Source: an uncultured Alphaproteobacteria bacterium (GTDB lineage: Bacteria > Pseudomonadota > Alphaproteobacteria > Rs-D84). Taken from it: 64,000 nucleotides of DNA. The position numbers are program-made. The stretch is taken from positions 2,008 to 66,007 of the forward strand of contig CALXWX010000003.1 of NCBI GenBank assembly GCA_944392565.1, given 5' to 3'. Positions 51,001 through 54,000 of this stretch are shown here, piece by piece. Each line of letters opens with the position of its first letter. The stretch's first letter is position 1.

Positions 51001-54000
51001 TTGTAAATCAATTGTTTTGGTTGCCATGCGTGCAAACGCGGCGCGAATTACGAATGCAGATAACCCGTCTTCGATTAATGTTGCACCACTGATTTCATCA
51101 CCAGACGTCAATTCTGTTGTATAGCATTGTGCAATTGGTGTTTGCATCGGGTTATATTTAAAATCAGCCGCAGTTATTTTGGGGGTATAGTTTGTCAATC
51201 TTTCATCATGCATAGATGTTGGCACCGTTGTACAACCTATCAACGGCAGTGTAAATACGAGCATTGAAACTTTTTTTAATATTCCCAATTGTACACAATC
51301 CCATATTATTTTCGATACAGTATATAAAAACATAGCGCATATGTCAAATTCATTAAAAAATATAACGATCAGGAAAATTAACTTAAATCACGGGCTTTGT
51401 TGTGTTCAAAATGTATTTTTTATTTGCGCGTTTTCACCCATTGTGATAAAATTATATGTAATAGGAAGGATTTTTTGCATGAAGAGATTAATTGCCGTTA
51501 TCAGTGGATTGCTGGTTTTGCCCGCATTTGCAGAGGTTGCGCCCGAATATTTCTATCAAGAAATGATGGCACAGTATGCAGCAGAAAATCCGGATATGGA
51601 ATACATAACCGATGATGTTGTTGAATCAGACAACGCATCTGAACAATCTGAACAGCCTGTGCAACAACAAACGGTAACCCCGGTTGTGCCAACCGCGGTC
51701 AGTCCGCGTAATGCAACCGGTCGTGCGGCGGCATCGCGTGCGGTTGCAACATCGACAACCACATCGGCGCGAAATGTCGCAAATCGTAATAATGCGGCAA
51801 CAACTGCGCGTACGGTAACTTCGCGCCCGACCGCCACCACTGCGGCGACCACATCGCGCACCGCCACAACCACGGCATCACGCGCGGCGGCATCGCGTAC
51901 AAATGCATCACGCACATCGCGCGCAACTGCATCGAATACAGTTGCCAGTCGCCCAACAACAACGGTTCGTTCAACAACAGCGGCGTCCACAACACCGGGT
52001 GTTACGACGCGTGCGGCATCGGCACAGAAAAATAATTCAAATACTGCGCGTGCATCAATTGTACAAACAGATACGGTTAATACGCCATTGTATATCAGCG
52101 GCGGCACCAGTGCGCGGGTCAGTACGCGTTCAACAAATGTCAGTGCGCGCGTTCCAACAATTCGTGTTGGTTCAACGACATCAACAGGGGAATCTGAAAC
52201 ATCTGTATCGTCATCGTCGATATCAATGGATGAATTAGCGCAATTAACTGATTATTGCAAGGCGCAATATACCGCATGTATGGATAATTTCTGTAATGTC
52301 TTGGACGAAAACCAGGGGCGGTGCAGTTGCAGTGCCAATCTGGATAATTATGCCGAGACCGAGGCAGCATTAAAACAAGCAACCGAAGATTTACAGGATG
52401 TTGCACAACAAATTCAATATATTGGTTTAACCGCGGAAGAGGTTGAAACATTATTCACCCAGACCGAGGCGGAATTACAAATGCAATCAACAACTGACAA
52501 CAGCCAGTTGAAAAATGATTTGGATAAAATCAAAGATATGATTGTTGATGTTCAATCTGGCAAGGCATCGACATCATCATCCAGTGGATTAAGCTTTGAT
52601 TTATCTGGATTACTGGATTTCACAATTGACAGTACCGGATTTGATTTAACATCATTGCTGGGTGGTGGTGCCAACACCAACAGTATCAGCAATCAACGCG
52701 GTGAAAAACTGTATGACACGGCGGCATCACGGTGCAAGGCGGCGGTGCTGAACAGTTGCCAGGCGCAGGGTGTTGATATAACAATTATAACAAATGCATA
52801 TGATTTGGAAATTGACAAGGCGTGTATTGCATACGAACGGGCGCTGACGGAATCTAATGATCAAATGTCGTCAACTGTGCGCAATGCGAAAAGTGTTCTG
52901 CAACGCGCGCGTTTGTTGGTTGCGCAACAAAAGAATCAATATGACCTGCGCGGGTGTGTGACAGAACTGGATAACTGTATGCAGGATGACTTTGTATGCG
53001 GTGATGATTATGAAAATTGTTTGGACCCCAGTGGTAAATACATTGTAAACGGTGAAATTGTCGTGGGCAGTGAACCGGGGGCGCCTGGCGATGTGACTGC
53101 ACCAATATATAATGCATGGCGGTATACCAAAGAAGATGGTGGCGAAAATGTGAAATATGATGCGTGGGGATTGTCCGATAAAGATAATGCAGTAGAAGCC
53201 GGTAATTTAAGTGAATATATCGCCGCGACTGTAACCCCTGATTCTGCGCAAACAACATCGTCAGACATGTCAAAGTTCTTGCAGAATAAAATTGGTTATC
53301 ATGATAATGATGACGGCAAAAATTATGGTATGTGCATGTCGGTATTAAACAGATGCCAGGATATCACATATACAAAAAGCGGTAATAGCACAGAATACAA
53401 TCCGCAAAACAATGTGGTCAAAGAATTCTTGAACCGTACATTGGTGCAAATCAAATCCGCCCAGGATTCTATCATGGCGGAATATGCAGAAGATTGTATT
53501 ACTGATGTTGCATCATGTCTGGCACAAAATAATTATGATCCGGATGATAAATCAACTACAGAAGGTGGCGCTGATGAAGAATCTATAAAGAATAAAATTG
53601 CAATTCGTGCATGTAATCCGATAATTACAACATGTATGAGTGTTAATAAAGTTACAGCTGAAGGTTCTAATACAGAGTTGATGCAGTATGACTGGATCAA
53701 GAATATTATGCAATAAAAAATCCCGCCAAATGGCGGGTTTTTAATTGCCCATCGACAATACAATCCACTGTTCTGCTGTTAATGTCATGTTTTGCAAAGT
53801 ATTGTTGACGCCATTAACTCTCATACATGTTGTTATTATTGGGTTACATGCACGAATAGCCAGTTTGATATTGTAATTGCTGTTTCTGTAATTTATTCCA
53901 TATCAATTGATTTGATGCATTCTGCATCAGAAAAGATTTCTTTACTGCCAGCAGCGGGGTGTGGTGGTCAGAACGGTCAAGAATGCATTTTTATCACGAC

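Follow-up and report, generated by a model that had tools for sequence, protein, structure and literature searches.

The locus and its gene

The stretch of DNA considered here (the window) comprises 64,000 nucleotides (nt) from an uncultured Alphaproteobacteria bacterium of the GTDB lineage Rs-D84 (GenBank assembly GCA_944392565.1, contig CALXWX010000003.1, positions 2,008 to 66,007 of the forward strand), and its element of interest, the target gene, is an open reading frame (ORF) of 745 amino acids (aa) at 51479-53716 on the plus strand. An earlier interpretation made from the letters of the window (the sequence-only reading) had placed a large secreted protein with a canonical signal peptide at these positions, and this is borne out by a Shine-Dalgarno-like AGGAAGG, the presumptive ribosome-binding site, 9 nt 5' of the ATG at 51479, by a start (MKRLIAV...) whose MKRL is common to all close homologues, and by a Sec-type signal peptide followed by EV. 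Mechanical listing of ORFs also gives a longer one from 51341; the ATG at 51479 is nevertheless taken as the true start because of the AGGAAGG upstream of it and the identical starts of the homologues. The signal peptide sequence has no lipobox, and the protein is predicted to be exported by the Sec route. Along the gene lie the following parts:

51479-51532, plus strand: Sec-type signal peptide MKRLIAVISGLLVLPAFA, predicted to be cleaved between AFA and EV; family consensus MKRLxxxxxxLLVLxAFA
51533-51694, plus strand: N-terminal segment of acidic and aromatic character, aa 19-72 (net charge -12), in which a short helix is predicted at aa 24-36
51695-52252, plus strand: Thr/Ala/Ser/Arg-rich, Lys-poor, Cys-free tract, aa 73-258, predicted to be disordered from its composition and its predicted local distance difference test (pLDDT) values
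52253-53713, plus strand: conserved Cys-rich, mostly helical domain, aa 259-745 (~490 aa), defined by Cys conservation; mean AlphaFold pLDDT 74
53054-53278, plus strand: hypervariable segment 1, aa ~526-600; this subdomain with beta-hairpins is modelled with confidence and starts just past the conserved YIVNGxxVVG junction
53534-53713, plus strand: hypervariable segment 2, aa ~686-745, a loop and C-terminal tail after the conserved KIAIRACNPIITTCM
53722-53737, both strands: bidirectional intrinsic terminator hairpin CCCGCCAAATGGCGGG, with T-runs on either strand, between the stop of the gene and the stop of a silent cassette

The acidic segment is kept within the genus and gapped in distant family members when these are aligned. 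Since a strong hairpin with T-runs follows the stop codon, the gene is judged to be monocistronic, and scans with Rfam and for tRNA genes found nothing within or adjoining it.

An orphan helical domain with eighteen conserved cysteines

The sequence-only reading had also described a helical domain of ~450 aa with paired cysteines, and the follow-up agrees, extending it to ~490 aa, counting 18 Cys (at residues 260, 267, 272, 282, 284, 419, 427, 449, 493, 500, 507, 514, 619, 626, 673, 680, 712 and 719) and finding it mostly helical in the predicted structure, with very long helices of ~50 residues. Six of the pairs have the spacing CX6C and one the spacing CX7C, while 272, 282, 284 and 449 stand singly. 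All 18 are invariant in an alignment of 60 sequences reaching down to 29% identity, and a wider alignment of 100 sequences leaves 17 of them invariant and the remaining one conserved to at least 90%. Some 60 other positions are likewise invariant, many of them polar (D, E, R, Y, N, Q) and none of them His, and a low-confidence loop of the model, aa 357-405, bears a conserved LLDFxxDSxGFDL motif. Because a CX6C pair inside a helix puts both Cys two turns apart on one helix face, the pairs may form disulfides that staple neighbouring helices together, as in twin-CX9C hairpins. The number of Cys after the signal peptide is even in 310 of 340 full-length family members, and the tract lacks Cys in 322 of the 340, as is expected of fully paired intramolecular disulfides. 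The closest parallel for such pairing is found in the twin-CX9C and twin-CX3C hairpins of CHCH proteins and small Tims, which also carry a Cys pair on one helix face, staple antiparallel helices through disulfides and fold in an oxidising compartment after export; the target differs in its CX6C (once CX7C) spacing and in having several pairs within a 490-aa bacterial domain, there is no homology between them, and the pairing in the target is itself a deduction from spacing.

That the domain belonged to no recognised family was a further claim of the sequence-only reading, one that homology searches could have overturned, and none did. The best Pfam match, FTA4, scores 19.6 bits against a cut-off of 24.8 and is a coiled-coil artefact; NCBIfam matches of the target protein fall far below their cut-offs; Pfam and NCBIfam scans of the 60 alignment members and of ten long relatives gave no family above threshold in the conserved domain; a profile search against PDB sequences returned one match, a designed helical bundle, at E 0.32; and Foldseek found nothing better than E = 1.4 in the PDB or 0.6 among viral models. 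Membership of the Sel1 or Helicobacter Hcp group finds no support, there being neither a Sel1 match in Pfam nor an internal repeat, as comparisons between sub-regions gave z of 0.4 or less and thus no sign of an internal duplication. Nor is the protein placed with F-type TraN, for which Pfam gave no match, and virB8, virB9 and virB10 lie 19 kb away. Both the family and its predicted fold appear to be undescribed, on the evidence of these sequence and model searches, although exported, Cys-rich proteins that vary and contain a disordered linker are familiar as a general kind.

Two hypervariable segments exchanged by recombination

Column entropy and indels in the family alignment are concentrated at aa ~526-600 and ~686-745, the former being the more variable. 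How this variation arises was followed by comparing the window with L083 and L084, contigs from two independent samples. The flanks and the first 1.5 kb of the gene are ~98-100% identical in nucleotide sequence, identity then drops to 77-82% over 53019-53318, recovers to 97% in the island between both segments, drops again to 68-73% over 53469-53742, and returns to 98% from mraZ onwards. Synonymous divergence (dS) follows the same outline, at 0.02 for codons 1-258, 0.17 for 259-513, 0.76 for 514-613 and 1.8 for 664-745, with a ratio of nonsynonymous to synonymous divergence (dN/dS) of at most 0.22 in every segment. The mosaic identity and the jumps in dS point to imported divergent alleles and not to point mutation. 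P0008, which over the whole protein is just 81% identical, has both imported segments in identical form; one tail type is common to proteins that are 74-98% identical overall and come from different species; and a single 90% cluster contains five tail alleles or more. Strain variation lies in the exchange of two short 3' segments, not in the length of the tract.

Measured over the whole gene, dN/dS is 0.09-0.19, compared with 0.02-0.09 for housekeeping neighbours and 0.19-0.22 for the Pmp-like autotransporter of the window. The rate of evolution of the target is 2-4 times that of those housekeeping neighbours, which puts it among the fastest-evolving genes of its neighbourhood. Against L047, the target and the autotransporter have the same dN/dS (0.19 each), a convergence seen at larger distance. 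Hypervariable regions flanked by conserved sequence and alleles of mosaic make-up, such as gene conversion would leave, are thus both present.

A silent inverted tail beside the gene

Across the terminator, facing the 3' end of the gene, the conserved KIAIRACNPIITTCM block occurs a second time and leads into another tail, equal in length but different. The features concerned are:

53594-53647, plus strand: left inverted-repeat arm, encoding KIAIRACNPIITTCMSVN; 47 of 54 nt match the reverse complement of 53813-53866
53741-53902, minus strand: silent, 5'-truncated, inverted alternative 3' end, ...KLAIRACNPIITTCM RVNGVNNTLQNMTLTAEQWIVLSMGN and stop; tblastn match to the gene's own tail, E 5e-9
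53743-54667, no strand: strain-specific non-coding insertion of 925 bp that separates the target from mraZ; L083, L084 and L001 lack it, and L090 has a shorter version

The right repeat arm occupies 53813-53866; the arms are 87% identical, with perfect runs of ~14 nt. The two stop codons face each other across one bidirectional terminator, the tails ending 22 nt and 4 nt from the hairpin. On the 5' side of its repeat arm the cassette has a stop and a 10-nt deletion, so it is not expressible by itself. It is 83% identical in nucleotide sequence to the expressed tail of a P0025-type Enterousia species. The cassette is present and open in L085, L086, L090 and L091, with three sequence variants over five copies, and has the same orientation in all five contigs that carry it. 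It is absent from conspecific strains with other tails, including L083 and L084, and from the P0025-type species, and no reciprocal cassette occurs in P0025-, P0400- or P0402-type strains. Two scans of JGI metagenomes for the inverted state came back empty, which is uninformative as the species is apparently absent there.

The insertion that holds the cassette also contains a 75-bp x 2.7 tandem repeat at 54270-54475, flanked by two copies of a hairpin-containing element of ~90 nt at about 54028-54120 and 54496-54585. It has no Rfam match, pieces of it recur elsewhere in the same genome (L085 1-362), and it looks like a dispersed repeat of the miniature inverted-repeat transposable element (MITE) or repetitive extragenic palindrome (REP) kind.

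A comparable and independent arrangement occurs in another species. In L056 (6802-7933), a 47-nt inverted repeat, identical at 45 of 47 positions, sits at the conserved IVNGKVVVGSKPGASG (IVNG..VVG) junction ahead of variable segment 1, and a convergent open cassette of 157 codons (7460-7933, minus strand) encodes a product that matches Cys-rich C-terminal modules of the family at E ~1e-16. As an invertible 3' end, the L056 arrangement is a better candidate than the cassette of the window; no recombinase-like ORF of at least 90 aa was seen in the 6 kb downstream, as judged by eye without a Pfam scan.

Two kinds of precedent are relevant. In the R64 shufflon (PilV/Rci) and in the S/S' genes of phage Mu (Gin), inverted repeats lie within the gene at the junction of constant and variable parts, as they do here, and alternative 3' ends converge, so that at both the target and L056, where inverted repeats likewise bracket convergent 3' ends, inversion would yield a complete gene either way. 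The target differs in that no recombinase gene was found near it (a Pfam scan of window ORFs of at least 150 aa gave no recombinase domain), one orientation was observed over the five contigs, and its arms are only 87% identical. With Anaplasma Msp2/P44 and Neisseria pilE/pilS the target shares flanked hypervariable segments, mosaic alleles and a promoterless, 5'-truncated copy outside the gene. Anaplasma is moreover an alphaproteobacterium with a reduced genome. The proteins themselves are unrelated, the target has one cassette and in some strains only, transfer from cassette to gene was not observed, and its mosaics match alleles of other strains and species; the 64-kb window holds one truncated copy of the gene.

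These facts are, we think, somewhat better accounted for if the cassette is a decaying scar, a P0025-like import that became joined in inverted orientation at the palindromic terminator and that operates no working switch. Its likeness to the P0025-type tail, the stop and deletion 5' of the repeat arm, the imperfection of the arms with their short perfect runs, the want of a recombinase among the scanned ORFs, its position inside a strain-specific insertion, its absence from most strains and species and the fact that no expressed copy of the silent tail was seen in the species all fit such an origin. It would leave unexplained why both tails end symmetrically at one terminator, why, beyond the repeat arm, the cassette has stayed open in each of the three variants from the five contigs, and why the cassette arm is closer to the resident gene (87%) than the P0025 gene is to the resident gene (72%), a hint of homogenisation; the L056 case, with its nearly perfect arms and long open cassette, also speaks for something more than decay. 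That the cassette is functional, as a switch or as a donor, is accordingly a possibility we hold with some doubt. The broadest version, in which the protein would be the main variable surface antigen or contact protein of Rs-D84 symbionts, with an undescribed fold and varied by inversion or gene conversion involving adjacent silent, 5'-truncated 3' ends such as 53741-53902 or, in L056, 7460-7933, is unlikely. If it were true, variation of the Msp2/pilS or shufflon type would have a bacterial counterpart in an uncultured lineage common in human and animal guts, and functional silent cassettes would imply programmed surface variation in a new bacterial order.

The Thr/Ala/Ser/Arg-rich tract

The core of the tract (aa 73-215) is 25% T, 22% A, 14% S and 12% R with a net charge of +17, and the full-length AlphaFold model has pLDDT ~30 over residues 40-247, from which the tract is predicted to be disordered, as the sequence-only reading had it. 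Across the family its composition is 56% S+T+A+R, 9% R and 1.4% K, and no other window ORF of at least 150 residues from stop to stop has a comparable tract.

Locally GC-rich, repetitive DNA prone to slippage, and a stalk of variable length as its product, had also been proposed. The GC peak is real (0.61 against ~0.42 in the flanks), but it is an outcome of the choice of Thr, Ala, Ser and Arg, because it is confined to the second codon position, where GC is 0.78 in the tract and 0.39 elsewhere in the gene, and leaves position 3 unchanged (0.41 against 0.38). An adhesin whose stalk changes length by slippage is, in our estimation, a very remote prospect. The tract is of low complexity through recurring [AST][AST]R units, and the N-terminal region ranges from 106 to 318 aa across the whole family, as slippage might produce; yet Tandem Repeats Finder reports no tandem array in it even at score 30, the sole direct repeats are degenerate 30-nt matches of 60-80% identity, and the stretch ahead of the first conserved Cys varies by no more than 257-259 aa in length among nine close relatives, which are strains of one species. 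Neither a coding tandem DNA repeat nor length polymorphism among strains, the marks of a contingency locus, was thus found. To judge by substitution rates, the tract is under purifying selection (dN/dS 0.06 against L001, the nearest other species, and 0.06-0.19 over the comparisons), and the motifs NTARASIVQTDTVNTPLYIS (52040-52099) and SARVPTIRVGS (52142-52174) within it are almost invariant within the genus; the sister clade has conserved blocks of its own, NTVGRNARVxAASINN..RRAGLTLRPSTAEVGGRA. Each of these points, like the restriction of the GC excess to one codon position, counts against slippage, and on the sequence evidence the tract is disordered yet constrained, with linear motifs embedded in it, and is no spacer prone to slippage.

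Family, hosts and modular relatives

A scan of species-representative genomes found relatives in 152, of which the best 80 were kept as loci. All 80 lie in metagenome-assembled genomes of the gut, the hosts being humans, chickens, ruminants and horses; the genomes bear the labels Candidatus Enterousia, uncultured Alphaproteobacteria or 'Rickettsiales', and one is an evidently mis-binned 'Bacteroides' record. Enterousia belongs to the GTDB order Rs-D84, a group with genomes smaller than 1 Mb that is missing most biosynthetic pathways and is believed to rely on other cells (PMC12306168). A word-indexed search gives more than 1100 family proteins, and an exhaustive one 607 clusters at 50% identity with E <=1e-3, 173 of them with E <=1e-30. 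Members are named 'hypothetical protein' wherever their source names them, none has a precomputed Pfam domain, and nothing about the target protein was found in the literature on Enterousia and Rs-D84. A phage origin was ruled out, since a scan of viral contigs gave no relatives.

Many family members are far longer than the target and reach up to 2338 aa, the extra sequence lying C-terminal to the conserved domain. These extensions consist of Cys-rich repeats, several with Listeria-Bacteroides repeats (E as low as 7e-41), and in the 60 alignment members and ten long relatives that were scanned, weak EGF-like Pfam matches fall only there. In some Enterousia species (L045, L058, L059, L062 and L065) two full-length paralogues stand in tandem. 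Distant, unannotated neighbours of ~700 aa share the first Cys-motif region only (L046 1621-1851, L081 3500-3733 and L082 784-1056), at about 33% identity over about 80 aa, which suggests that a wider superfamily may exist. In the 90% cluster of the target, two truncated calls, P0407 and P0409, leave the family sequence after ...AQGVDIT and ...FVCGDD; these breaks may be frameshifts, insertions or assembly breaks at strain-variable points.

Location and function of the protein

The reading that we favour, though with a little less than even confidence, is that the target is a contact protein peculiar to its lineage, stabilised by disulfide bonds, exposed at the surface and diversified through recombination. 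Where the sequence-only reading had offered an adhesin or effector with a variable-length stalk, the stalk falls away, as described above, and the adhesin or surface role is the best supported part, because of the fast evolution of the gene, its localised recombinational mosaicism and the adhesin-type C-terminal modules of its longer relatives. In such a protein the Cys would form nine intramolecular disulfides after export, stapling neighbouring helices into a rigid scaffold that displays two variable patches, or the extra modules in relatives, towards the outside, where they might contact a partner cell, the host surface or mucus under pressure to vary. The basic tract may tether the protein in the envelope, or thread it there, through its conserved beta-prone motifs, and variation would come from recombination with imported or archived alleles, for which a ComEC gene in the window and the silent inverted tail beside the gene are suggestive. 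A broad parallel is provided by trypanosome VSG, MISP and factor H receptor, in which an elongated helical scaffold with conserved disulfides carries displayed regions diversified by recombination, and MISP (5vtl) is among the weak structural matches of the target domain.

Several observations weigh against this reading. Surface exposure is itself deduced from sequence, and a route across the outer membrane is missing: the target has no lipobox, beta-barrel, sorting signal, known secretion signal or gene-linked dedicated exporter, and a periplasmic location would suit the signal peptide and the disulfides equally well. As dN/dS is below 1 in the variable segments, these attest to recombination and leave positive selection unproven. 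The silent tail is carried by none of ~20 conspecific proteins, and the neighbouring PLD-family gene provides no functional clue, because its adjacency is lost in distant genera.

A periplasmic scaffold of the envelope, less probable in our view though well within consideration, would use the basic tract to bind either peptidoglycan or the outer membrane at its inner leaflet, or to thread its N-terminus through a porin, while the helical domain stiffens or spaces the envelope. RcsF threads its N-terminus through a porin in this way, and the same has been proposed for chlamydial OmcB. A signal peptide unaccompanied by any outer-membrane targeting feature, conserved Cys suited to periplasmic oxidation, and a single locus per species genome among the best 80 loci are all in keeping with this role, as is the presence in the window of a Pmp-like autotransporter and a Pom-like porin, envelope proteins of chlamydial type. 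Exchanged hypervariable patches, tail alleles crossing species, tandem paralogues and silent cassettes would, however, be unusual for an internal scaffold, and the Listeria-Bacteroides repeats and EGF-like Cys modules of relatives are typical of extracellular proteins. The likeness to OmcB (Chlam_OMP6/DUF11) concerns layout only: a signal peptide, a basic N-terminal region and a Cys-rich body of ~500 aa, in an envelope that also has Pmp-type autotransporters, with no known route across the outer membrane for either protein. No Pfam or sequence match links the two, OmcB is beta-rich whereas the domain of the target is helical, the basic region of the target is ~185 aa long and disordered, and its CX6C spacing suggests intramolecular staples in place of an intermolecular lattice.

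A released soluble factor, whether a toxin, a bacteriocin-like protein or a nutrient scavenger, is more improbable still. It would have the layout of a colicin, in which a disordered N-terminal translocation region with short binding motifs precedes a long helical part for receptor binding and a C-terminal end that varies, and the target does combine conserved linear motifs in its disordered tract, helices of ~50 residues and a variable, modular C-terminus. Among the weak Foldseek matches are the colicin E9 complex as well as Tc and BoNT-like toxins, each at E >1; every one of these structural matches is non-significant, however, and no conserved small immunity-like gene adjoins the target. 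Colicins, moreover, have neither signal peptides nor disulfides, the invariant residues of the family contain no obvious catalytic set and no invariant His, and the gene is core and conserved where an accessory gene would be expected.

As a conserved marker of the Rs-D84/Enterousia lineage, present in at least 152 species of a group widespread in human, poultry and ruminant guts, the protein could serve for strain typing or as an antibody target with which to visualise or enrich uncultured cells. Its fast evolution and the segmental exchange of its alleles make it a concrete candidate for a molecule that contacts a partner or host. If it is not exposed at the surface, it would still represent a large orphan family deserving a Pfam entry, if one that is biologically ordinary.

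Neighbouring genes and other proteins of the window

Upstream of the target lie the following:

49699-51264, minus strand: gene of a PLD-family lipoprotein with lipobox LIGC (PLDc_2, E 1e-33), divergently transcribed
51265-51478, no strand: AT-rich divergent intergenic region between the PLD-like lipoprotein gene (minus strand) and the target, GC 0.32-0.34

The intergenic region is presumed to hold the promoters of both genes; promoter-like hexamers on its two strands are no commoner than in shuffled sequence. The PLD gene adjoins the target in 73 of the 80 related loci (tblastn match directly upstream; on the opposite strand in 69) and is the sole consistently adjacent one among the traced neighbours, fabH, the HU gene, mraZ and the remainder being shuffled across these loci. 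In two more distant genera the target homologue follows ribosomal protein genes and PLD is absent, so that a functional link between target and PLD gene was dropped, the synteny being at genus level only. Within the PLD gene, nucleotide identity falls to 83-84% at 51069-51218 (aa ~16-65 after the lipobox, the linker just past the lipidated Cys) in comparison with L083 and L085, which are otherwise ~99% identical; here, too, recombination may have replaced a patch of an exported protein.

Further envelope and transport functions are encoded in the window. VirB8, VirB9 and a long VirB10 lie at 27765-32535, the VirB10/TrbI homologue (27765-30227, minus strand) having 820 aa and 14 Cys; its TrbI domain spans aa 399-602, one region is rich in Pro and Glu, and a long extension at the C-terminus finishes with the Cys cluster CPDGGAPDANGCCAGEIYTDMGEQGFNCCPESGGDCFPPIL. 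A TolC/AcrB-type efflux pump is present, as is a ComEC/Rec2 competence protein (15273-17213, minus strand), a possible DNA-uptake route for the allele imports of the target. An autotransporter with Chlamydia Pmp repeats (55934-58639, minus strand) and a Protochlamydia Pom-like porin (61904-63379, plus strand) are chlamydia-type envelope proteins in an alphaproteobacterium, and the former is the fastest-evolving gene of the neighbourhood, with 63% amino-acid identity to L001 against 94-99% for its neighbours.

The sequence-only reading had called the window rich in Cys-rich surface proteins besides the target. This holds only for an exported protein of 243 aa at 17410-18141 (plus strand), which has 16 Cys (6.6%) and no Pfam match, and not for the autotransporter, which has 2 Cys in 901 aa. 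Kinship of the 17410 protein with the target was rejected, as BLASTP matched it to no family member or extension. Next to mraZ, finally, an ORF of 111 aa without a Pfam match (55496-55831, plus strand) recurs in divergent orientation in 46 of the 80 related loci, at 77-95% identity.

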